A stretch of 32,000 bases of DNA from Chloroflexi bacterium GWB2_49_20 (GTDB lineage Bacteria; Chloroflexota; Anaerolineae; Anaerolineales; Villigracilaceae), in assembly GCA_001796335.1 (NCBI GenBank), contig MGMF01000001.1, forward strand, positions 358,657 to 390,656, given 5' to 3'. The number at the start of each line of letters is the position of its first letter. Positions within the stretch are counted from its first letter, which is position 1. A program made the translations under genes and the position numbers. The notes under the pieces were generated by a model. That model did not search any database, was not told the origin of the DNA, and worked only from the letters and a program-made list of their open reading frames with translations. Shown piece by piece: positions 2,978 through 26,368 of this stretch.

Positions 2978-3022
2978 ATAAACAAAAAGGAGATGGCGCA
3001 CCATTGCGGATGTGCCATCTCC
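2978..3022 (-). terminator. rho-independent terminator of the AOR gene, lying between convergent genes
   Basis: ggagatggcgca (2989-3000) pairs with tgtgccatctcc (3011-3022), a 12-bp stem with a 10-nt loop. On the minus strand the stem is followed by TTTTTGTTTAT (complement of 2978-2988). Confidence 0.8.
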
Positions 3023-3039
3023 TGTATTGCTCCTTAGTC

Positions 3040-4866
3040 TTACGCGATCTCTAATTCCTTCAATTTAGCTTCGGTGACAACTCCATCCTTCCAGCCGCGG
3101 GCTTCGTAATATTCCACAAGCATCTTGTCCAACTCGCAGACCTGACCCATTGAACCTTGCTGATCAGATGGTTCATACAGGAACCTCCTGGGTAGAGTAT
3201 CACTGCCTTCGCGGAAGCCGTTCAGATTGTTGTAGTGACGTTCCAGGTTGTAAATGCGTTCGCCCGTCTTCAATACATCATCGGTGGTAAAGGGCACGCC
3301 TGTCATCGCTGCGTATTGCTGGGCGTACTCTTCTGCGCCCATGGCAAACGCGCTGAATTTGCACAAATCCATGCTGTCGGAGAAGGCGTGGATATCCTGG
3401 AAGATTTTGACCAATCCGCCTTTGCCTTTCCATTCGAGCGGATCCACCTTGAGCGAACCGTAAGGCATTATGTTCAACTCGGCAGCAGGAGTGTAGGCGC
3501 GCAGGTGACAGGCACCACGATTGGAAGTTGCGTAGCCGAGGCCCATTCCCTTAAGTCCGCGCGGATCGTAAGCAGGAATACCCTGCTTCTTACACGTCAT
3601 GGCCAGTTCGGGATGACCGAAGTGTTTGGCAGTGGCATCGGCGCCTTCCGCCATTATATTGCCGAGACCTTCGCGTTTGGCAATCATGGCAGCGGCTTTG
3701 GTCATGCCGTCGCCATCGCCCCAGGCAAGTTTGCCATCGCCGTTGGTGTAGCCTCGCTGGCTGGCTTCCATCCAAACTGCGAGTGGATGGCCAACTTCGA
3801 TGGCATCGAAACCGTAGTCATTGGCGAGGTCGATCATCTTGGCAACAAGGCGGGCGTCCGGGTTTCCGCAGTTTGCACCGAGAGACCAACATGGTTCATA
3901 TTCCACCGATTCCATGTGCAGGCCTTTGTAGGGGCCATCCTTGATCTCAACTTCCTTTTTGCATGCCGTCGGACAGGCGTGACAGGTGGGATCGTTTACA
4001 AGAATGTTTTCCTTTACCCATTCACCGCTCAGGGTTTCGGCATCTTTGCCAAACGCAGTAAACTGGCTGTTCTTGGTGGGGTAAGCACCAATATTATTAT
4101 CAATGTTCGTCAGCACGTTTGTGCCATAAACTGAAAGACCGCCCTTGCGCGGACTGGTGATGTTCTCTGGCGCCATAATGCCTTTCAGGGCACGATCGTG
4201 CGCGATCTTCCAGGCCTCGCGGTCTGGGGCTTTGGTGAGATTCTTCTCAGCCTTGATCACGATGGCTTTCAGGTTCTTGCTTCCGCCCACACAGCCGGTG
4301 CCGCCGCGTCCGGAAGCGCGGTCATTTTCGTTTATCCAGCAGCCGAATTTGACCAGCTTCTCGCCTGCCGGTCCAATGCTGATGACAGATAAATCTTTTT
4401 CGCCATATTTTTCTTTGAAAAACTTGATGGTGTCGTGAACGCCTTTGCCCCATACTTCTTTTGCGTCCAATAGTTCCAATTCTCCATCATGGATGTAGGC
4501 GTATGTCGGTTTTGCAGCTTTGCCTTTGAAGATCAGGCCATCGAAGCCAGCCCAGCGTAAGCGGGCAGCTGACCAGCCTCCATGGTGAGAATCAGTTATG
4601 GTTCCAGTAAGAGGCGATTTTGTCACAACCGCCATGCGCCCGCTCATGTTCGCTTCCGAACCCGTAAGCGGGCCATTCATGAAGCACAGGATGTTATCGG
4701 GAGAGAGCGGGTCCACTTTCGGACCGTTATCATAAACGAATTTCACACCGAGACCCCGTCCGCCGATATACTTGCGGGCCAGATCTTCGGGCACGGGTTT
4801 GAACTCGACCTTGCCTGCGGTCAGATTTACCCATGCGAGTTTGTTGGCATAACCTCCAAGTGTCAT
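3040..4866 (-). CDS. aor: tungsten-type aldehyde:ferredoxin oxidoreductase (AOR family)
   Basis: 608 aa. N-terminal GYANKLAWVNLTAGKV..E...YIGGRGLG. The [4Fe-4S] ligand motif CHACPTAC (CxxCxxxC) plus a later Cys in DLCKF. Length and order are typical of the AOR family. GGAGAA RBS before the ATG. Confidence 0.95.
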   Translation of the reverse strand: MTLGGYANKLAWVNLTAGKVEFKPVPEDLARKYIGGRGLGVKFVYDNGPKVDPLSPDNILCFMNGPLTGSEANMSGRMAVVTKSPLTGTITDSHHGGWSAARLRWAGFDGLIFKGKAAKPTYAYIHDGELELLDAKEVWGKGVHDTIKFFKEKYGEKDLSVISIGPAGEKLVKFGCWINENDRASGRGGTGCVGGSKNLKAIVIKAEKNLTKAPDREAWKIAHDRALKGIMAPENITSPRKGGLSVYGTNVLTNIDNNIGAYPTKNSQFTAFGKDAETLSGEWVKENILVNDPTCHACPTACKKEVEIKDGPYKGLHMESVEYEPCWSLGANCGNPDARLVAKMIDLANDYGFDAIEVGHPLAVWMEASQRGYTNGDGKLAWGDGDGMTKAAAMIAKREGLGNIMAEGADATAKHFGHPELAMTCKKQGIPAYDPRGLKGMGLGYATSNRGACHLRAYTPAAELNIMPYGSLKVDPLEWKGKGGLVKIFQDIHAFSDSMDLCKFSAFAMGAEEYAQQYAAMTGVPFTTDDVLKTGERIYNLERHYNNLNGFREGSDTLPRRFLYEPSDQQGSMGQVCELDKMLVEYYEARGWKDGVVTEAKLKELEIA

Positions 4867-5110: not shown

Positions 5111-5341
5111 TCAGGCTGCCAGGCTGATGTAAACCGTCTGGCTGCGCGTACTGAAGCCTGCCCAGTAGGTGGCTCCATCCACCTTGTACTCAGTCATCAT
5201 AACCGTCCGTCCAACCTCATCTATGTTTTCCACGAACATCGTTTTACGATCTGCAATTCGTGTAACTTTAATATCGCCATATCCAGCCTCACTCTTGCGG
5301 CTGTACTGCTCCACTATTTTCAATAGCTGGTCACTGTTCAT
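5111..5341 (-). CDS. hypothetical protein (76 aa)
   Basis: ORF from the track. TTGGAGATC lies 4 nt upstream of the ATG on the minus strand. No recognisable motif. Confidence 0.5.
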   Translation of the reverse strand: MNSDQLLKIVEQYSRKSEAGYGDIKVTRIADRKTMFVENIDEVGRTVMMTEYKVDGATYWAGFSTRSQTVYISLAA

Positions 5342-5738
5342 TAGATCTCCAAGTTAATATATCTTCACATGTTGTATTTATGCAAGCTACAACATCTGTC
5401 TGCAAGAAGTTTTCCAAAACACCCCCATGCTTGCGTATGTTCCTGGATAATTGAGTCTATTTTATTATACTGTTTTAACCTGCAATTTATACCATCTCTT
5501 TTTTTAATCAGCGATTTGACGTGCAGGTTGTACCAGACATTGACTCAAATGTGTGCAGCTGAATAAGGGCAGGCGCAGCCTCGTGGTGAAATTGAACACC
5601 TTTGAAGGCACGCAAGCAGCCGGGTATCATTTAAATGGCATCTCTACCACTACCCATGAAAGCAGTTTTGGTTTATAAACATAATGATGGGTCTCCAAAA
5701 AGGTTGAACATAACCTCTTCTCAAAAGAAAGGCACACT

Positions 5739-7133
5739 ATGGCCATTCCAACCAAGATCGTTGTCATCGGCGCGGGCAGCGCCTCTTTTGGTGAAAATAC
5801 GCTCTCTGCGCTGATGCGCTCAAAAAAACTTCGCGGCAGCACCCTGGCACTGGTGGACCGCAACCCCGAAACACTCGATATTGTCAAGCGCCTGGCACAG
5901 CGGCTCAACCGTGAGTGGGATTCAGGTATCACCCTCACAACCCACACACACCACCACGATGCGCTTGAAGACGCAGGATTCGTCGTCTCTGCCATCGAGG
6001 TCGGGGCGCGTGAAGGGTTGTGGAAACAAGATTTCGAAATACCGCTCAAATATGGGGTACGGCAACCTTATGCTGAGAATGGCGGTCCCGGCGGATTTGC
6101 CCACGCCGCGCGCAATATCGGTCCGATCATGGAGATTGCACACGAAATGGAAAATGCCTGTCCTCAGGCCTGGTTCATCAATTTTACCAACCCGATGATC
6201 CGTATCTGTGACGCCATCAACCGCCACAGCAAGATCAAGGCCGTCGGCCTGTGCCACCAGATATTCATCGCCTACACCATGGTTGGAATTGCACTGGCCA
6301 AAGACCTGGGCATCACTGTCCCGCATGGGATTACCGGCATGCACGCCGATATCCTGCAAGCCCCTCTCCACCACCAGGTAAAACAGCAGACTGTCACGCG
6401 CCTCGACATTCGCGCCGCCGGGCTGAATCATTTCTCCTGGGTTCTCTCCATCCGCGACCGGCAGACCGGCGAGGACCTTTATCCGCTCTTCCGGAAACGC
6501 TGGAATGATTTGGATCCAGCCTTTGAGCCGCTAACCAGAAGCGTCTTCGATGCTTTTGACCTGTTCCCCGTTCCCGGTGATACGCATCTATGCGAGTACC
6601 TGCCGTGGGTCTCCGATCCGGTCACCAACCCCTGGGAAAAGTACGCCATCCGGCTTTACGATTGGGATTTAAATGCGGCCGTACGCGAATTTCAAATCGA
6701 CAGGCTGAAAGACATTGCTGACGGTGAAATCACCATCGCTGGACTTGAAAACACTGATTCAGAAGGCGCCCTGGAAATGATCGAGAATGTGGCTGCAGCC
6801 GGGACCCATTACCACCTGGCTGCCAACCTGCCAAATGAGGGGCAGATTTCCAACCTTCCGTTAGGTGCAACTGTGGAAACGCCCGTTGTCGTGGATGGAG
6901 AGGGTATCCACCCGGTCCATGTCGGCGCACTGCCGGAACCGGTTGCTGAACTCCTGCGCCGGGAAACCACAGTGTCCCAATTGTGCGTGGATGCCGCGAT
7001 CGAAGGTGACCGAAAGAAGGCTCTGCAATGCCTGTTGCTCGATCCAGTGATCAATGACATTGATCTGGCAAAACAGATCCTGGATGATTATTTATCCAGT
7101 TATAAAGATTACCTCCCGCAGTTTTGGAAATGA
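5739..7133 (+). CDS. glycoside hydrolase family 4 (NAD+/Mn2+-dependent alpha-glucosidase/alpha-galactosidase type)
   Basis: 464 aa. N-terminal Rossmann KIVVIGAGSASFG. GH4 signature region PQAWFINFTNPMIRICDAINRHSKIKAVGLCH. Confidence 0.9.
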   Translation: MAIPTKIVVIGAGSASFGENTLSALMRSKKLRGSTLALVDRNPETLDIVKRLAQRLNREWDSGITLTTHTHHHDALEDAGFVVSAIEVGAREGLWKQDFEIPLKYGVRQPYAENGGPGGFAHAARNIGPIMEIAHEMENACPQAWFINFTNPMIRICDAINRHSKIKAVGLCHQIFIAYTMVGIALAKDLGITVPHGITGMHADILQAPLHHQVKQQTVTRLDIRAAGLNHFSWVLSIRDRQTGEDLYPLFRKRWNDLDPAFEPLTRSVFDAFDLFPVPGDTHLCEYLPWVSDPVTNPWEKYAIRLYDWDLNAAVREFQIDRLKDIADGEITIAGLENTDSEGALEMIENVAAAGTHYHLAANLPNEGQISNLPLGATVETPVVVDGEGIHPVHVGALPEPVAELLRRETTVSQLCVDAAIEGDRKKALQCLLLDPVINDIDLAKQILDDYLSSYKDYLPQFWK

Positions 7134-17722: not shown

Positions 17723-18778
17723 ATGAGCGCTGATTTTATCGCCCGCCTTGCCGGGATGGTTTTCTTTGCCGTCCTTGGGGGAGTATATGGCTTCAAGCTT
17801 GGAGAGTTTAGTGAAAACCAGATCATTCTCTACACCAGTACCCTCATTTTAGTCGGGGCATTGGTCGGGCTTGTACTTACGCCTTATTTCACCACCCGCC
17901 CCATGCGATTCATCCGTACCCAGTTGACCCGCCTCTCAGCCGAGGCCTTGTTGGCCAGCCTGGCAGGTTTGATCTCAGGACTACTGATCGCAGCCCTGCT
18001 GGCATTTCCCCTATCCTTGCTTCCCAAGCCCTTCGGTGAGGTGCTGCCTTTCGCAGGCGTGATCATCTTTGTTTATTTTGGTGTGGCATTATTCTCCATG
18101 CGCCAGAATGACATTTCCAATCTTGTTGGGGGACTGGGCTCAAAGCGCGAAGGTGGCGGTGCTTCGGGCTGGCAACAGGTCAACCGCACCATCCTGCTGG
18201 ATACCAGCGTGATCATTGATGGGCGCGTGGCAGATATTGCCAAAACCGGCTTCCTGCCCGGCACATTGTTGATCCCGCGCTTTGTCCTGAATGAACTTCA
18301 GTATATTGCTGACTCATCCGACAGCTTGCGCAGACAGCGCGGGCGGCGCGGGATGGAAGTTCTGGCTGAATTGCAGAAAGGCTCTTCCGTGGCTGTCCGC
18401 ATCAGCGATATTGATGTTGACGGTGTGCGCGAAGTGGATGACAAGCTCGTCATCCTGGCGCGCCAGATGAAATGTCCGATCCTCACCAATGACTACAACC
18501 TCAACCGCATTGCAGAATTGCAGGGTGTCACCATCCTCAATATCAATGAGCTGGCTAATTCCGTCAAATCCGTGGTTCTTCCAGGTGAAGTATTGCTGAT
18601 CAACGTGATCCAGGAGGGCAAGGAATTTGCCCAGGGTGTGGGATATATGGAAGATGGCACCATGGTCGTGGTTGAGAACGGTAACAAATACCTCCACCAG
18701 GAGATCCATGTTTCCGTCACCAAGGTACTACAAACCGCCGCCGGCAGGATGATCTTCGCCAAACCAGAAAGTGGTTGA
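17723..18778 (+). CDS. yacL: membrane-anchored PIN/TRAM-domain protein (YacL-like)
   Basis: 351 aa. Four N-terminal hydrophobic helices. PIN signature [12 protein letters not shown]...LNELQ. C-terminal TRAM-like [35 protein letters not shown]. Its position upstream of cysS matches Bacillus. Confidence 0.85.
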
Positions 18779-18792
18779 TCCAGGAGATCAGA

Positions 18793-20193
18793 ATGATCCG
18801 TGTTTACAATACCCTCACACACAAAAAAGAGGAGTTTCAACCGCTTGAACCCGGAGTGGTCAAGTTGTACGTGTGCGGCCCCACTGTCTACAGTGATGCC
18901 CATGTCGGTCATGCCATGTCTGCCCTGGTCTTTGACATCATCCGCCGCTACTTTGAGTATCGAGGCTACCAGGTTGTGCATGTCATGAATTTCACCGACG
19001 TGGATGACAAGATCATCAATCGCGCCAATCAGATGAAAGTCGACCCTTTTGAATTGGCTGAAGGCTACATCCGCGATTTTAAAGAACATCTGGAAGATTT
19101 GAACATTCTACCTGCCACTCTCAACCCGCGTGCCACCCAGACCATGGACAAGATCCAGGCCATGATCCAGGGTTTGATCGACAAGGGTTATGCCTACGCT
19201 GCCTCCAATGGAGACGTATATTTTCGGGTTACCAAGGATGCTGATTACGGCAAGCTTTCCGGCCGCAAACTGGACGATATGCAAGCCGGCTCCCGCATCG
19301 AAGTGGAAGAGCTGAAAGAACACCCCATGGATTTTGCGCTGTGGAAATCCGCCAAACCGGGTGAACCCGCCTGGGACAGTCCCTGGGGGTCGGGGCGTCC
19401 CGGCTGGCACATCGAGTGCTCAGCCATGAATCTGCACGTTCTGGGTGAGCAGATCGACATCCACGGCGGTGGCAACGACCTGATCTTCCCACACCACGAA
19501 AACGAGATCGCCCAATCTGAAAGTTTCACCGGCAAACCTTTTGCGCGCTACTGGCTGCACAATGGCATGCTGCAACTCAGCGGCGAGAAGATGTCCAAAT
19601 CCCTGGGTAACCTCATCACCATTACAGAATTTTTGGAAAAACATGACGGTGACGCCATGCGCATGCTGGTATTGAATGGTAATTACCGCAGCCCGCTTTC
19701 TTTTACCGAAGAGAGCATCTCGGCTGCTGAACAAGGTCTCAACCGACTGCGCACCTCCCTCAAACCCGCCACTACCGGCGTCACAGGTGTTACTGCTGAA
19801 ATGGAAAAATCCCTGGCAGACCTGGCTGAAATCACCCGCAAAACCTTTACCGAATCCATGGACGATGACATCAATACTTCCGGTGCTTTGGGCGGCATTT
19901 TCGAACTGGTGCGCCAGGTCAACACAGCCCGCGATGCTGGCGCCACTGACAAACAGCTCGCGTCTGCCCAAAATGCCCTGCGTGAATTGAGCGCTGTGCT
20001 CGGCCTGCGCATGGAATCCACCCGCACAGGCGGCGACGCCGATAAATTTGTGGACCTGCTGGTCGAACTTCGCACCGAACTACGGTCACAGAAATTTTGG
20101 GCACTCTCCGACCTGCTGCGCGACCGTCTCAAGACCCTCGGAGTCAGCATCGAGGACAGCAAAGCCGGGGGCACAACCTGGAAGTGGGATTAA
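18793..20193 (+). CDS. cysS: cysteine--tRNA ligase
   Basis: The ATG at 18793 follows AGGAGA; the track ORF begins at a TTG (18775). HIGH-type motif HVGHA, KMSKS motif, and a conserved CGPTVY start. Confidence 0.95.
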
Positions 20194-20416
20194 CCTCCCC
20201 ATTCATCCAAATTCTATAAATTTCCGGATGGGCGATTCATAGATTGGTGGAATCAATGCGTCAAATACTGTTTGAGATTGAAGTTGTTTATTAACAAATC
20301 GGCCCCTTTTGAACCACTCTAACTTATTAAAATCCAATCTGTCAGATATCTTATTTAACACTCTTATTCTTGCAATTCCATTAGTTACTCAGTCATCGTT
20401 AGTTCACTAATGCCTT

Positions 20417-21226
20417 TCAAAACAAAGTCTTTGTTACCCTCATTACACCAGCAATTAAATCATCAACATGTTCCAATGTTGGCTCTATTTTCTTGTTGTG
20501 GTCGCATAAGTTACGGATATCTGCTAGATGTTGAATTTGACGCCACTGCGGGATATCAACGACGCTCGAATCCTTTAACTTATCATTCAAATCACCAATA
20601 CCAGGTCCTTTTTTTGTAATCTTTATTCTATGGTTGTCGCACACTTGTGCGAGGTGTCGCTCGAGAACTACACCCGCGAGGGCGCCTGCTGCACGTGTGA
20701 ACTTGTTCTTGCCCAACTCTCTCGCTGCGTCTAGTTCTGAATCGAATAGGTCCCCTTGTACAAGTTGGCGGATATCAAAGAGAGAACTCTCGAACCTTGA
20801 TTTCACTGATTGCAATATCGCTTGTTGCTGTATGAAAAGTGGTATTGCAGCGTCAGGTCCCACAACCTTTTCATTGTTTCGTTGGCGAGTGACTGTTACC
20901 CCTTGAAGGTTATCCTCAATACTATAATTCTCATACGTAATGTCCTTGCGTGTTTTAGGCTTCTCGTAAAGGCGGACAAAATCCGAAAGTCTTTCTGGTA
21001 GCAATTGTTTGATTAGCATTTTTGCTTCGGAGTACCAGGACTGATATTTTTTTTTGAAGGAAGGAATGTCTTTTATGAAATCTTCCGCCATATCGCCGAG
21101 TTCTTTCTTAACTTCCCGTTTAAATTCACCAGGAACACACTCTAAATTCAAAGCATTCTCCAACTGCCTCCCTTCTGCGATTAAAGCGTCAAGATCTTTC
21201 TTATATCGGTCTAAATTCGATAACAT
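20417..21226 (-). CDS. hypothetical protein: N-terminal coiled-coil region plus a C-terminal HEPN-like domain (Rx4H)
   Basis: The ATG at 21226 is preceded by AAGGAG; the track ORF starts 27 nt earlier at a non-ATG codon. 269 aa. The C-terminal helical unit AAGALAGVVLERHLAQVC...LNDKLK...WRQIQHLADIRNLCDHNK contains R-N-L-C-D-H, an Rx4H motif as in HEPN RNases. Confidence 0.65.
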   Translation of the reverse strand: MLSNLDRYKKDLDALIAEGRQLENALNLECVPGEFKREVKKELGDMAEDFIKDIPSFKKKYQSWYSEAKMLIKQLLPERLSDFVRLYEKPKTRKDITYENYSIEDNLQGVTVTRQRNNEKVVGPDAAIPLFIQQQAILQSVKSRFESSLFDIRQLVQGDLFDSELDAARELGKNKFTRAAGALAGVVLERHLAQVCDNHRIKITKKGPGIGDLNDKLKDSSVVDIPQWRQIQHLADIRNLCDHNKKIEPTLEHVDDLIAGVMRVTKTLF

Positions 21227-21354
21227 ATTTGCTCCTTTTTTCTCCCTAAGCACAATTAAAGACTGTTGAATCTAGTCTGTCAGATTCCTTATCGTATTGA
21301 TATACATATTCTTAGAATCTCTTAATTTGACGGCTTAGACATTCGGGTAACTTG

Positions 21355-22245
21355 TCATCTTTGATTTGATTGTTCGGAAATTACTTTCTCTAACCGTTCC
21401 TTCACCCTTCTTTTTTTCTGATCGTCTCTATTCTTTACGCGTTTTATAACCAATTCCACTGTTTCGATTATGGAATCAACCGATTCTACAGCAGCTAACC
21501 CAGAGTTTTCTTCAAAAATTATCCGTGCTTGTTGTGTTTGCTGGCTTATAGCTATATCCTTGTAAGGTACGTATGATTTAACCATTCCAATTAAGTTAGC
21601 ATTACCTATATTACTTGTCCCTTGTATTGCCACCGATGCAGGGCAAAGGATAACAGGATTCCCAGAATTACCTGGGAATACAGGTGCATCAATTAGAAAT
21701 TCATTTGTTCGATTTTCAAGGAAATCTCGAACTCTCGCTAAACATCCTGCTCGGCATATAACATATTGTCGTTCTTTTGCAACAAGTCCAATTGGGAAAC
21801 CGAGCACGAAGATAGGATCCCCTTCTGTTATTCCGTTAGCGATCATCTTCTCTTTATTCAAAATATGTTCATCGGATCGAAAGTATTCAAAAATACTTCC
21901 TTCAGCTTTTAGAAACGCTGGATTTAATAACATTGCTGCAACATCAACAGTAATTGATGGATGACCAATCCAAATTGGTCGTCCATTTCTTGAAATAAGT
22001 GGAATCTTGTAGTCTTTGCTTTTTGGGTCTTGGGCAGAATTGAACTTGATATAAGCCACTTTGAGATTAATAAGCACATGTTTATTTGTGATGAGTAAAA
22101 TTTGATAACGCTTTTTATTATCTGGTAATTCATCTAAAAATCTGCCTAATAGAAATCCCGTACCAATCCAATGCCTCTCGTTAGGGTCATCGCCAACACC
22201 GATTGCGACAACTGTATTCAAAAAAAAGGGGGGGATAAGTGCCAT
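21355..22245 (-). CDS. trypsin-fold (S1/Trypsin_2-like) serine protease
   Basis: The ATG at 22245 is preceded by AAGGAGA; the upstream TTG at 22347 has no RBS. 296 aa. Putative triad elements: His in LITNKHVL, Asp in TVDVAAMLL, Ser in PGNSGNPVIL. Basic helical C-terminal tail (KRVKNRDDQKKRRVKERLEK). Confidence 0.8.
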   Translation of the reverse strand: MALIPPFFLNTVVAIGVGDDPNERHWIGTGFLLGRFLDELPDNKKRYQILLITNKHVLINLKVAYIKFNSAQDPKSKDYKIPLISRNGRPIWIGHPSITVDVAAMLLNPAFLKAEGSIFEYFRSDEHILNKEKMIANGITEGDPIFVLGFPIGLVAKERQYVICRAGCLARVRDFLENRTNEFLIDAPVFPGNSGNPVILCPASVAIQGTSNIGNANLIGMVKSYVPYKDIAISQQTQQARIIFEENSGLAAVESVDSIIETVELVIKRVKNRDDQKKRRVKERLEKVISEQSNQR

Positions 22246-22356
22246 GATTTCTCCTTCTTGAACTGTTTTCCTCAGTAGACATTGAAGTGACAATTCCAAA
22301 TTTTTACAATCATCTTTGAAAAGTGGTCGCTTCTTTATAGTTCTCAATAAATATTC

Positions 22357-22677
22357 TTATATTTTCATGAACCATTCAAGATTTCCCCAAACATTATCCT
22401 GCAAAAAAACTTTAAAATGAGTTTTGATACCTGGAAGTTCACTGGTTGAAATTGAAATAAATACTTCCCCGGAAAGATCGTCATCCAATCTCAACAGATG
22501 TGTTTTGTTGTCTAATTCTGGTTTATATCCATCTACTGTCAAGAACACTTCGAACTTTTTACGGTTATCGGAGTTTTGCGCATCAATCAAAGTTATAGTC
22601 ACCGAGCAATTTGATAATAGCAATTTACTGCTTTTATCTAATAGTTTTCCCTGGACTTTCTTAGTTGTTCGTCTCAT
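22357..22677 (-). CDS. hypothetical 106-aa protein, translationally coupled to the RM-like gene
   Basis: The ATG (22677-22675) overlaps the TGA (22676-22674) of the upstream gene as ATGA. The sequence looks beta-rich (VTITLIDA..FEVFLTVDGYKPEL..EVFISISTS..HFKVFLQ). No motif recognised. Confidence 0.65.
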   Translation of the reverse strand: MRRTTKKVQGKLLDKSSKLLLSNCSVTITLIDAQNSDNRKKFEVFLTVDGYKPELDNKTHLLRLDDDLSGEVFISISTSELPGIKTHFKVFLQDNVWGNLEWFMKI

Positions 22678-25600
22678 TTCACCTCTCTCATTTCTTTTAC
22701 GATCTTCATCGTTTCCACACTGACTGCGCACACTCGACACAGCAGATCAATGACCTGTTCTTTGTAATCTTTGAACCTGTAAGTATTGAACTTCTCCGCA
22801 ATGGTGGGGGCTTTGGGTTTCTTTTCTTTGTAGCGCTCCAGAACCCATTCCAATGCCGAATACGTGCCTAAACGATATTCCCAGGCTTCGGCAGGTACAC
22901 CTTTCAACGTTGTGAACGTATCCACTTCGATAATGCCCGCATCCTTGCGCGCCATCAAGCGCGGGCTTAAGGCTTTGCGGGTTTCTTCAGCATTTAGATC
23001 CAGGCGTTCAAGTGGGTAGGCTGGCATGCTCTCGTAGTTGAGATGCAGATTCATCAGGCGCTTGCCCCGATCCGCCCATTTCCAGAAGTCCCCATAGAAC
23101 GGGATGCGCGGGAACTCGCGCTTGAGATTGATTTCATACTTGGCACGGTAGGCAGGATGGTGCAGGACGGCATACACGTAATGAAAAATATCTTCTTTCA
23201 CGATTTTCGCGTCTTTGTAGTGCTTCTGAAATTGGTTGAGCGCCCAATCGGTGATGTTCTCCACCCGTGAGACTTCCGAAGTCTCGGAGACTTCGGAAGT
23301 CTTCGACGCGCCTCTGTAACGGTAGAGCGGGAGACATTGAGAATCACCATTGAAATGTAAATCAGGAACAGCATTGACAGATAGAACATTGAATTGTCTG
23401 CCATTCATGTTGATACAAATCGCAAGGTTATCAGGCTTTTCTCCGATTTTGAAGAAGATAGGCTGTAGGTATGGACGATGGACAATCACCATATCATAAT
23501 AAAAAAAGCGTTTGACAAATGGGCGATACATTGCCGTAGTGATTTTCTTATTGCTGAATTCAAGATTTGTGCCCCGAATTAAATGCGCTTCAAGTTCACT
23601 TGTCCATTTGATAGAACGATCAACAAAATCATTAGTAGCTTTCCTCTTATCCGATAGAGCCCATCTATTCTTTTCATATTTGAATAAGTCAATAAAGTAT
23701 TTGATTTTGTTTTCCAAAAGATCAGGGCGTTCGTCATAAACCCATTCATCGCGATTTGTAGCCACACCTAAAGAATACATCTTGAAAATCGTTTTGGGTT
23801 CTTTCAACCCTTTTTTAGATTTGCCTTCTTTACTTGCAAGCGGAATATATTCTTCCCAATCATTTTCAGATAGGTTTATCCAGTTATTATTTTTATCAGG
23901 TCGAATCGGTTGGAACTTCAAATCAGTGAACTTGTTATCACGCAAATACGCTTTTTTCTCTTCGGCTTCAGCATAATCAGCAATCGCATTGTAGTAAATG
24001 CGACAACCTTTCAAACCTTTTTTGCGAACAAAGAAATATACAGCTACACCAACACGAATTTGGTCACTGAAAACATTCCCGCCCTCTTTACGTCTTTGCT
24101 CCCCGCTAATACGGGCATCTCCTTTCAAGTCAATGATGTGAATCTCATTGAATTCATTTGCCACAATTTTACGGAAACCATCATAACTGCGAGCATTAAG
24201 AAATGAATTATTTGAAACAAACGCAATCACACCGTCTTTATCTAAACGGTCACTCGCCCAGCGCAAAAAACGAGCATACATATCATAAAGTTTTGTTTTC
24301 TGCGCCGTGCTTTGCTTTACATATGTTTCTTTGATTCGTTTATCAATTTCAGGATATTCACGGTTCTTGTTATTCTCGTTCTCATTCAATTGATTGGCGT
24401 TATAGGGTGGGTTGCCAATCACAACCATAATTGGCTTGCTATTCTGCTTGACGATTCTTTCCGCATTTGCATCTGTCAAACCGAAAAAATTCAACTGCTT
24501 GCCACTATGCTCGAAACCCATATTATCCAGTGTATCCACAAAACAGATATTCTCGAACTCTTTGAACTTGCCCGTCTTTTGCTTGTAGGTATATTCAATG
24601 TTCAGGTTGGCGATGTAATACGGCAATATGGATACTTCGTTGCAGTGGATTTCATGCTCGTACTTGTATTCCAACTGCTGGGATGGCAGATATTCGATCA
24701 GTTCGGTAATAAAAGTGCCTGTGCCTGTCGCCGGGTCTAAAATTTCCACGCCCTTATCACCCAGCGTTTTTCCGAAATGCTTGTCCACCAAATGATCGGC
24801 GCTCTCGATCATAAAGCGCACGATCTCATCCGGTGTGTATACGATCCCCAGCCTGTCGGCTGCCTTCGGGTTATACGCTTTGTAAAAACTCTCGTACAAG
24901 GCCTTCAAGAATTTCTGCTTCTCGTGATGGTCGCTTATCTGTGACGCTTTTGCATTGATGGTCTCGTAATAGGGTGCCACCCTGGCATGGATGTTGCGTT
25001 TGGTCTCGCCGTGATAGAACGTCCCTGCCACTTCCTGCAATTTGCGCGCAATGATGTTCTCGCGGTGGAACTCGGCTTCGTCAAAGACGCGCATGAAAAT
25101 ATCTTCGGTCAGCACGTGCTGGATGATCATCTCGCGCACGTCTGCCAATTCGATATTGGGATTAATAGCCTTGCGTGCCAGCTCCAGGAACTCAGTTAAG
25201 GCAGTTTTGAATTGCAGGTTGTCAGCCAGCTGTTCTGTGATCACCCTTCGCAGGGTGTCTGCCAGACCGCCTACTTCGGCGCAGAATAATTCAATCGCCT
25301 TGCGGAATTCAACGACTTCGGCGGGTTGGTAACTGACAAAACGGGTCAGCAGGGCATCCAGGGCAGGCGCATTATTAAACGCGGTGCGCATGATTTCTTC
25401 GCCGCCCTGGTACAACACGGCCGTATGGGTATCTTCAAAAAGGATATTGAATGTTGGGTATCCCTTCGCGATCTTGGTGGCGATCTCGTCTTCTAAAAAA
25501 TCCTTCTCATCCTTGCTTTCCCAATACCCCCAATTCTGCCGCAACGCATCTTTAAAGACTCCATCCGGACGGATCCGGTTTCCCTTGCGGGATACCATTT

Positions 25601-25754
25601 CCACTTCTGACACCAATAATAAATTCTTGGAGCGTGCATATTGTTCTAGAAGATCTTGAAATGGCTTGCGCAAACTACTCTCATTACGCGAGCCGCTGTA
25701 GTGGATGATTTTTTCAACAGCAGTATAGTATTGTTGGATAAGCTGAATCGACAT
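22674..25754 (-). CDS. single-chain type IIG/IIL-like restriction-modification enzyme: N-terminal PD-(D/E)xK-like nuclease, gamma-class N6-adenine methyltransferase, and a long C-terminal specificity region
   Basis: The ATG at 25754 (MSIQLIQQYY) is preceded by GGGAGAAG; the track ORF extends to 25856. 1026 aa. RPD64...E79-S-K81 (GYWESKD) resembles the MmeI-type D-Xn-E-X-K nuclease motif. MTase motif I is VEILDPATGTGTF and motif IV is VIGNPPYNANQ. About 570 aa follow motif IV. No helicase/ATPase motifs. Confidence 0.85.
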   Translation of the reverse strand: MSIQLIQQYYTAVEKIIHYSGSRNESSLRKPFQDLLEQYARSKNLLLVSEVEMVSRKGNRIRPDGVFKDALRQNWGYWESKDEKDFLEDEIATKIAKGYPTFNILFEDTHTAVLYQGGEEIMRTAFNNAPALDALLTRFVSYQPAEVVEFRKAIELFCAEVGGLADTLRRVITEQLADNLQFKTALTEFLELARKAINPNIELADVREMIIQHVLTEDIFMRVFDEAEFHRENIIARKLQEVAGTFYHGETKRNIHARVAPYYETINAKASQISDHHEKQKFLKALYESFYKAYNPKAADRLGIVYTPDEIVRFMIESADHLVDKHFGKTLGDKGVEILDPATGTGTFITELIEYLPSQQLEYKYEHEIHCNEVSILPYYIANLNIEYTYKQKTGKFKEFENICFVDTLDNMGFEHSGKQLNFFGLTDANAERIVKQNSKPIMVVIGNPPYNANQLNENENNKNREYPEIDKRIKETYVKQSTAQKTKLYDMYARFLRWASDRLDKDGVIAFVSNNSFLNARSYDGFRKIVANEFNEIHIIDLKGDARISGEQRRKEGGNVFSDQIRVGVAVYFFVRKKGLKGCRIYYNAIADYAEAEEKKAYLRDNKFTDLKFQPIRPDKNNNWINLSENDWEEYIPLASKEGKSKKGLKEPKTIFKMYSLGVATNRDEWVYDERPDLLENKIKYFIDLFKYEKNRWALSDKRKATNDFVDRSIKWTSELEAHLIRGTNLEFSNKKITTAMYRPFVKRFFYYDMVIVHRPYLQPIFFKIGEKPDNLAICINMNGRQFNVLSVNAVPDLHFNGDSQCLPLYRYRGASKTSEVSETSEVSRVENITDWALNQFQKHYKDAKIVKEDIFHYVYAVLHHPAYRAKYEINLKREFPRIPFYGDFWKWADRGKRLMNLHLNYESMPAYPLERLDLNAEETRKALSPRLMARKDAGIIEVDTFTTLKGVPAEAWEYRLGTYSALEWVLERYKEKKPKAPTIAEKFNTYRFKDYKEQVIDLLCRVCAVSVETMKIVKEMREVK
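23269..23308. repeat. tandem, internally palindromic 18-nt repeat inside the RM gene
   Basis: gagacttccgaagtctcg followed by gagacttcggaagtcttcg. It encodes TSEVSE/TSEVSR in ...RGASKTSEVSETSEVSRVENI.... Each unit is a 7-bp hairpin (gagactt/aagtctc). Confidence 0.7.
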
Positions 25755-25781
25755 ATTCACTTCTCCCTGATGGTTAAAAAC

Positions 25782-25790
25782 ATTATAGCA
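25782..25790 (-). promoter_or_regulatory. candidate extended -10 (TGcTATAAT) for the RM-like operon
   Basis: The minus strand reads tgctataat about 28 nt upstream of the ATG at 25754. No clear -35. Confidence 0.4.
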
Positions 25791-25819
25791 AACAATTGGC
25801 GAACAGAGGTGTGAAACAG

Positions 25820-26104
25820 ATGAAAGAAACCGAACTATTAGTCGCATTAATACCATCCCATCCCAACTTAACTCCGATAATTCAAAATCTCAGGGGAAAA
25901 TATAACCTTCCAGAAATCAGCCCAGATGATGAACCAATTTCAGAAATATTTTCTGAAGATGCTGTTATTTCTTTGGAAGAATTTCGCCAAGAAATCGTAA
26001 ACCTAATTCGAGAAAGCTTAACTTTCCTGCCACTCAATGCTATTAAAATATATAAATCGTCAAAATCTATTTATGAAATTGCCTGCATTGGACATGAATT
26101 ATAA
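25820..26104 (+). CDS. hypothetical protein (94 aa), divergent from the RM-like gene
   Basis: The ATG at 25820 follows AGAGGTG. AT-rich like the island. Acidic, with no recognised motif; could be an N-terminal fragment. Confidence 0.4.
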   Translation: MKETELLVALIPSHPNLTPIIQNLRGKYNLPEISPDDEPISEIFSEDAVISLEEFRQEIVNLIRESLTFLPLNAIKIYKSSKSIYEIACIGHEL

Positions 26105-26368
26105 TGTGACCCATTCCCCCTTTAATTAACAGGACTTATATGACAGCCTCTCCAATCATCCAGGTCGACCACTTCTCCAATCAATGCAAAGTCCTGGGGT
26201 CTCAGCTTGGTTTATAATCAAGAATATAATGCAAGGTTGGGTTGACCAAAGGTCCCCGTTGGGTGTACCCGTAAGCGGCAATCCTTTTACAGGTGACATT
26301 CTCCCCGTAGCAGTCGGACTGCCGCACTTCGCTCGCAGTGACAGATCAATGAAAATTAAGCGGAGAAC

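Follow-up and report, generated by a model that had tools for sequence, protein, structure and literature searches.

HEPN domains dimerise into a composite Rx4-6H ribonuclease (RNase) site, and they occur both in solo proteins with N-terminal sensor domains and, commonly, as the toxins of toxin-antitoxin systems (PMC3710099). RAZR (PD-T7-4) is a one-protein abortive-infection system whose DUF4145-type HEPN is activated by assembling around phage ring proteins (PMC13017515), and phage resistance, against T4 and T7, has been reported for an integron cassette encoding the solo HEPN protein AbiU2 (bioRxiv 10.64898/2026.03.17.712381). Among proteases, PDC-S45 is a computational phage-defence candidate; the single paper we found that mentions it reports it in Sinorhizobium prophages, as a PADLOC match without experiment (PMC12429752). 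Here we analyze a stretch of 32,000 nucleotides (nt) from Chloroflexi bacterium GWB2_49_20 (the window), in which a gene for a PDC-S45-like serine protease of 296 amino acids (aa) is followed on the same strand by a gene for a 269-aa HEPN-like protein. The first-pass annotation of this DNA had proposed that the two form a protease-controlled RNase pair. Our analyses point the other way: the protease and the HEPN-like gene are probably two independent single-gene modules, side by side only by having landed in one foreign island.

Like RAZR, the HEPN-like protein is predicted to combine, in a single chain, an N-terminal sensor with a C-terminal DUF4145-type HEPN RNase domain that carries an Arg and a His, and RAZR works without a partner protein, by abortive infection (PMC13017515). 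The two differ in that RAZR has a Cys4 zinc-ribbon N-terminus and R146...H154, whereas the window protein has a helical N-terminus of about 125 aa, no Cys4 and an Rx4H motif. In the alignment of close homologues, only three cysteines (C30, C196 and C241) stand in columns conserved to at least 90%, and they form no Cys4 cluster. Membership of RAZR was rejected, there being no zinc finger and no PADLOC match at E <= 1. With DUF4145 (PF13643) and HEPN (PF05168), both of clan CL0291, the protein shares the helical bundle, the E..H helix and the R-N-x3-H motif, but it falls under the Pfam thresholds, and its N-terminal half and a linker at residues 86-123 lie outside the described domains. The solo proteins AbiJ, AbiU2 and AbiV also join an N-terminal domain to a HEPN in one gene and are carried on mobile elements, and AbiV is a structural match (9bj7), although at the level of sequence profiles none of the AbiJ, AbiU2 and AbiV models matches the window protein. 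In structure, the HEPN domain itself comes closest to the MNT-HEPN systems (HepT/MntA; 5yep, 7bxo, 6m6w and 7ae2), but the window protein is twice the size of HepT. An MNT-HEPN toxin-antitoxin assignment was rejected because neither the window nor 80-116 related loci have a nucleotidyltransferase gene next to the HEPN-like gene.

The protease, for its part, matches PDC-S45 nearly end to end. With HtrA, DegP, DegQ and DegS (S1C) it shares a chymotrypsin fold and a His-Asp-Ser triad, and members of this group are its best solved matches by both fold and profile, with marginal similarity in sequence (profile E about 2e-3). Unlike them, it has neither a signal peptide nor a PDZ domain, and it carries a beta-hairpin at residues 217-255 and a basic C-terminal helix. 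An HtrA-type periplasmic protease was rejected for want of a leader and of a PDZ domain.

Results

The two families are not neighbours in related loci

The HEPN-like gene occurs in 280 stretches of a species-representative genome collection, which holds one genome per species. From these we took the best 80, including as much as 8 kb of flanking DNA to either side, and enlarged the sample to 116 with IMG/VR loci and the contigs of the closest homologues; at least 1.5 kb was available upstream in 91 of the 116 and downstream in 96. For the protease, 17 loci were assembled from homologue-encoding contigs and IMG/VR. None of the 80 HEPN-like loci encodes a homologue of the protease, or of the 106-aa protein or the restriction-modification (R-M) enzyme that precede the protease in the window. 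In the enlarged sample, no protease homologue lies within about 8 kb of the HEPN-like gene (0 of 116), and conversely no HEPN-like gene is found at the protease loci (0 of 17). Homologues of the 106-aa protein are absent from both samples (0 of 17 and 0 of 116). The nearest relatives behave in the same way. P0002 and P0003, which are 74-75% identical to the HEPN-like protein, have no protease beside them, and P0122, P0125, P0126 and P0128, which are 64-70% identical to the protease, have no HEPN-like gene beside them.

A survey of co-occurrence had been suggested along with the proposed pair, and the proposal does not survive it: the two families were not adjacent in the sampled loci, and the closest homologues of each stand without the other. 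Because the families are never neighbours in approximately 130 related loci, we regard the two genes as most likely independent. The HEPN-like gene has no other conserved neighbour either; the commonest neighbour cluster occurs in five of the 80 loci, and among 148 neighbouring open reading frames (ORFs) no Pfam or PADLOC family appears more than three times. Homologues of the protease adjoin IS21, IS200 or IS1595 elements, an integrase/Rep_trans element, a Cas_APE2256 gene or an AbiJ_NTD4 gene. Neither family has a conserved neighbour.

A predicted HEPN domain behind a helical N-terminal region

Translation of the HEPN-like gene is likely to begin at an ATG at 21226, preceded by AAGGAG, which yields the 269-aa protein; a GTG at 21253, which opens the mechanically called ORF of 278 aa, is a less likely start. 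The first-pass annotation had read LERHL...IRNLCDH as a minimal HEPN-like unit, and conservation bears this out: the residues of both motifs (E189 and H191; R238, N239 and H243) are invariant or nearly so in the family. Across 28 diverse relatives R238 is invariant and H243 is at least 90% conserved, and both are invariant in 26 close ones. An AlphaFold2 (AF2) model of the protein is all-helical (predicted local distance difference test score, pLDDT, 85), with an N-terminal part spanning residues 4 to about 107 and a bundle at residues 124-268. The top Foldseek matches of this model in the PDB are all HEPN proteins (5yep_C, 1o3u, 1wol, 2hsb, 7bxo and 3o10). HepT toxins lead the order (5yep, 7bxo and 6m6w), followed by TM0613, ST0689, AF_0298, the sacsin HEPN, Csm6 and AbiV, at probabilities of 0.95-1.0 and template-modelling scores on the target of 0.5-0.7, with E-values that are weak (0.17-3).

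Sequence profiles of the relatives give the same picture. Half of the 28 diverse relatives (14) match DUF4145 and seven match HEPN, weakly and mostly below threshold, and one relative, P0331, clears the DUF4145 gathering score (23.7 vs 23.1 bits). Residues 149-263 of the window protein are 36-38% identical to Acinetobacter plasmid proteins annotated as DUF4145/HEPN (tblastn, E = 6e-8 to 7e-10). On the basis of the motif, the modelled fold, the weak profile matches and the annotated relatives, we conclude that the domain predicted in the 269-aa protein is a genuine HEPN domain. These data establish the structure of the gene, the fold that the model gives it and its catalytic motifs.

The linker at residues 86-123 is highly conserved (Y87, E88, P90, K91, R93, Y101, D105, Q108, T113 and G123), and neither it nor the N-terminal helical part matched a described domain. 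A search of PDB sequences with a profile of the family alignment returned coiled-coil noise only (Hook3 and CopM), and a fold search of BFVD with the model was uninformative.

The HEPN-like gene is mobile and can travel alone

The family of the HEPN-like protein comprises 4,652 matches in a 90%-identity collection and 1,866 among 50%-identity representatives, and it is present on 33 IMG/VR contigs; a tblastn search of sequenced phage genomes with the protein gave no match. Its members come from Chloroflexi, Latescibacterota, Actinomycetota, Bacteroidota and Armatimonadota, and the 120 best-listed matches are 67-75% identical despite belonging to different phyla. Defence genes seldom combine such high conservation with so patchy a distribution.

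The clearest view of how the gene moves comes from Aromatoleum toluclasticum, in which it forms a single-ORF cassette between two 66-nt repeats (3022-3095 and 3945-4020 of locus L047). The repeats are imperfect hairpins with the ends CCAAC and GTTGG or GTTAG, at -37 and -31 kcal/mol, and this is the anatomy of integron attC sites. In a metagenome-assembled genome of the Actinomycetota (L002), an integron integrase (5146-6204; TIGR02249, 481 vs 265 bits) lies about 1.8 kb upstream of the HEPN-like gene. The product of a one-ORF cassette has to work by itself, and the Aromatoleum locus is thus independent evidence against an obligatory protease partner; it establishes the gene as autonomous as well as mobile. 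In the window, the evidence for an integron is confined to a 24-nt flanking repeat, with no convincing attC fold: folding is weak both downstream of the HEPN-like gene (z = -1.84) and upstream of the protease (z = +0.98). The L002 integron integrase has no tblastn match in the window; no search there was aimed at tRNA genes or at integrases of other types.

The 24-nt direct repeat flanks the HEPN-like gene on both sides (consensus ATAAGrAwATCTGACAGAyTrGATT; copies 83% identical; core palindrome TCTGACAGA). The local alignment of one flank to the other scores 3.7 standard deviations above shuffles, in a test made after the repeat had been seen, and a meaning for its bracketing of the gene is suggestive only. 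The repeat may represent the scar of an insertion, an operator, or a recombination site that has degenerated. The upstream copy holds the gaatct/agattc hairpin that the first-pass annotation had pointed out in an AT-rich spacer between the two genes. The spacer has the length and composition described, and the hairpin is present in it, but the spacer folds no better than its shuffles (z = -0.44). Neither a terminator-like nor a sigma-70-like site was found in the spacer.

These features invite a different explanation, in which the HEPN-like protein would be the toxin of an addiction module, with an unannotated small protein or a flanking RNA as its antitoxin, and not a defence gene. HEPN toxins are common in such systems (PMC3710099), the gene is mobile and often stands in cassette arrays, where such modules abound, and in the window it is bracketed by a repeat with a small palindrome. 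We consider this explanation unlikely, as the gene has no MNT or other conserved neighbour, the DNA flanking it differs between loci, and the Aromatoleum cassette holds this single ORF only. A search for a conserved non-coding partner in the 300 nt on each side of the gene at about 100 loci matched only near-identical loci, none of them the window, and the island has no match in Rfam at E <= 1.

The surroundings of the closest named homologue, in Candidatus Latescibacter (L089, 6001-8834), are a toxin-antitoxin-rich spot, with a HicB-type antitoxin and a canonical MNT-HEPN pair within 2 kb.

The protease is a leaderless PDC-S45 candidate

The protease gene starts at an ATG at 22245, with the ribosome-binding site GAAGGAG ahead of it, and stops at 21355. 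The N-terminus of the protein, MALIPPFFLNTVVAIG (MALLPPFFLDTVVAIG), is almost invariant across 27 homologues, and in the AF2 model (pLDDT 84; predicted template-modelling score 0.82), a double beta-barrel of the chymotrypsin fold, residues 12-17 already form the first barrel strand. The conserved N-terminus and the position of this strand argue against a signal peptide, in agreement with the earlier description of a leaderless enzyme that runs straight into its catalytic domain, and the protease is probably cytoplasmic. The highly basic helical tail that had also been described is borne out: after a long beta-hairpin at residues 217-255, the model ends in a single helix at residues 256-295, which contains 12 K/R vs 8 D/E and has an isoelectric point of 10.

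The catalytic triad, H56 (in TNKHV), D101 and S194 (in GNSG), is in canonical order and invariant in the 27-sequence alignment. Foldseek returned 154 matches in the PDB at E <= 1e-3, of which the top 50 listed are all PA-clan proteases, with DegQ, Deg2 and MucD as the best solved matches (E down to 5.5e-8). No Pfam match to a PDZ domain was found in the protein. Against PF13365 (Trypsin_2) the protease scores 22.9 bits, below the gathering cut-off of 27.6, and nearly all of the listed members of its family, which counts 3,228 homologues, match PF13365. The PADLOC model PDC-S45 (PDLC05022) matches at E = 1.5e-29 and 100.9 bits, with residues 19-271 on positions 30-288 of 293, and phrog_7688 matches at E = 3e-25. 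Judged by these profiles, the protein is best described as the PADLOC single-gene candidate PDC-S45.

At residue 196 (window 21658-21660) the protease reads GNSGNP, where at least 90% of the family reads GNSGGP. The deviation lies just behind the catalytic serine and may affect the oxyanion-hole region.

The genes stand in a low-GC island

Four successive genes, encoding the 1060-aa, 106-aa, 296-aa and 269-aa proteins, make up an island that differs sharply in composition from the surrounding genome (Table 1). The guanine-plus-cytosine (GC) content of the island is 41.5% vs 51-54% in its flanks, and each gene taken singly lies under the flanks (44% for the 1060-aa gene, 34% for the 106-aa gene, 37.5% for the protease and 42% for the HEPN-like gene). 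This spread of 34-44% suggests that the island was assembled piecemeal. Its borders are a cysteinyl-tRNA synthetase gene (cysS), recognised by reading the translation of 18775-20193, and rlmB (TIGR00186 match). The locus is most likely a small island of foreign DNA in which independent modules are stacked, namely the Type IIG R-M enzyme, the 106-aa gene, PDC-S45 and a solo HEPN protein of DUF4145-like type.

Table 1. Positions of the features discussed, in window coordinates
Feature	Position	Strand	Basis or remark
HEPN-like gene, 269 aa: N-terminal helical domain and C-terminal DUF4145-like HEPN, R238-x4-H243	20417..21226	-	ORF, alignment, AF2, Foldseek, Pfam, tblastn
Leaderless chymotrypsin-fold serine protease, 296 aa, basic C-terminal helix	21355..22245	-	PDC-S45, phrog_7688, AF2, Foldseek
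AT-rich spacer, 128 nt, weak 6-bp hairpin, one copy of the 24-nt repeat	21227..21354	-	GC 34%, folding
24-nt direct repeat, upstream copy (ATAAGGAATCTGACAGACTAGATT)	21269..21292	-	43 nt upstream of HEPN-like start
24-nt direct repeat, downstream copy (ATAAGATATCTGACAGATTGGATT)	20331..20354	-	about 60 nt downstream of HEPN-like stop
106-aa gene, function unassigned	22357..22677	-	ATG overlaps upstream R-M stop (ATGA)
Type IIG / Type ISP-like R-M enzyme, 1060 aa	22674..25856	-	Pfam and PADLOC
Low-GC island, 6.2 kb, carries all four genes	20194..26368		composition; cysS/rlmB borders

The 1060-aa protein matches Type_ISP_C (E = 2e-96), ISP_coupler and N6_Mtase in Pfam, and over its full length it matches the PADLOC model REase_MTase_IIG (1012 bits; residues 35-1059 on positions 1-1015 of 1024). 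As in Type IIG enzymes, one chain holds a gamma-class N6-adenine methyltransferase, a target-recognition domain and an N-terminal nuclease, the nuclease motif PD...ESK having been recognised by eye only. Within this gene, at window 23269-23302, lies an 18-nt tandem duplication, at the same time a perfect 16-nt palindrome (GAGACTTCCGAAGTCTC/GAGACTTCGGAAGTCT), which encodes SEVSETSEVS. At the edge of the island, a 102-aa ORF (25796-26104, plus strand) is divergent from the Type IIG gene and has no family match; it holds a 26-nt inverted repeat (25935-26081) that is 81% complementary, with its arms 95 nt apart.

The 106-aa gene and its neighbours

The 106-aa protein belongs to a rare but real family of 10 clusters, 106-107 aa long and 58-75% identical, which we could place in four contexts besides the window (L137, 7001-7321; L139, 2501-2821; L141, 1328-1651; L143, 1562-1882). 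It is possible to imagine it as a conserved partner of interchangeable effectors, in which case the real system would be the 106-aa protein with the protease, and possibly with the HEPN-like gene as well. Two observations favour such an arrangement. DNA methyltransferase or R-M genes lie near the 106-aa gene in four of the five independent contexts, and in two of the four other contexts a HEPN-family gene comes next on the same strand, after an identical gap of 197 nt. Its product matches ApeA_NTD1 in one case (E = 3.5e-38) and HEPN_Swt1 in the other (E = 1.8e-7). We nevertheless hold this arrangement to be improbable. As described above, neither the protease loci nor the HEPN-like loci contain a 106-aa homologue, in two of the contexts the 106-aa gene has no effector behind it, and the sample comprises only five contexts. 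Moreover, the 197-nt gap carries a common GGCTAAC...GAGCCAAACnGTTAGAT (GTTAGAT) signature that is attC-like. Folding of the gap downstream of the 106-aa homologues gave no confirmation of an attC site, but if the signature is real, the downstream genes are simply the next cassettes of an integron.

Discussion

Our comparison of related loci leads us to read the protease and the HEPN-like gene as separate modules of a foreign island, each of which may be an autonomous effector of the abortive-infection type; by analogy, RAZR would be the nearest characterised counterpart of the HEPN protein. We propose, with moderate confidence, that the HEPN-like protein could be a self-contained, auto-inhibited RNase of this type that is activated by a trigger. 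Its N-terminal helical domain may keep the HEPN domain inactive or may sense a phage component, and upon activation two HEPN domains would build a composite Rx4H site and cut RNA. The same logic of a trigger-activated RNase applies to RAZR and to AbiJ-like and AbiU2-like solo HEPN proteins. The PDC-S45 protease, which is predicted to be cytoplasmic and trypsin-like, presumably cleaves a host or phage protein upon infection.

Several points weigh against this interpretation, at the level of either independence or function. The 17 protease loci form a small sample, with about 10 independent contexts among them. With no terminator or promoter found between the two genes, they may be co-transcribed in this genome; the suggestion of the first-pass annotation that they may be separately expressed fits the evidence better than coupling does. 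Identity of 67-75% across phyla is unusually high for an immune gene. The neighbours of the HEPN-like gene elsewhere are mostly housekeeping genes, with some terminases, and do not clearly form defence islands, which leaves architecture and mobility as the grounds for a defence role. The window protein itself matches no model in Pfam, PADLOC or NCBIfam, apart from NitrOD2 at chance level, and the functions of both proteins are predictions from sequence and models. The housekeeping neighbours, the unusual conservation and the predicted nature of these functions hold our confidence in the RNase proposal to a moderate level.

The weakest of the alternatives is the pair itself, in which the protease would cleave the HEPN-like protein or its inhibitor and so bring about RNA cleavage in infection: the two genes are adjacent on one strand with a short spacer and no detected terminator between them, both appear to encode cytoplasmic proteins of effector type, and protease-activated immune effectors exist in other systems, but the proposal is largely refuted by the absence of co-occurrence, and the solitary closest homologues, the movement of the HEPN-like gene as a one-gene integron cassette, the treatment of the protease by PADLOC as a single-gene candidate and the unequal GC contents of the two genes (37.5% vs 41.9%) make it very improbable.

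If the HEPN-like gene is instead taken as an independent module, it is possible, and we suggest it only tentatively, that its product founds a new and very widespread family of single-protein, trigger-activated immune RNases with a logic like that of RAZR, carried from phylum to phylum as a one-gene cassette of integrons or phages. Such a family would be absent from Pfam, NCBIfam and PADLOC, and its helical sensor domain and 86-123 linker would be undescribed. A more elaborate version, in which the neighbouring PDC-S45 protease has also been recruited in this genome to regulate the HEPN-like protein, we judge to be very improbable.

Had the two genes proved to be a pair, they would have formed a new kind of immune switch, a HEPN protein gated by a protease, and the evidence presented here removes that candidate system. 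The locus carries a caution for other studies, namely that adjacency in a small foreign island or a cassette array is weak evidence of functional coupling. It also adds one more genomic context for the candidate PDC-S45. Finally, it draws attention to a family of solo HEPN proteins, large, highly conserved and as yet without a name, that is missing from current catalogues of defence systems, and the gene, as a single-gene cassette, is an easy target for phage-challenge screens.

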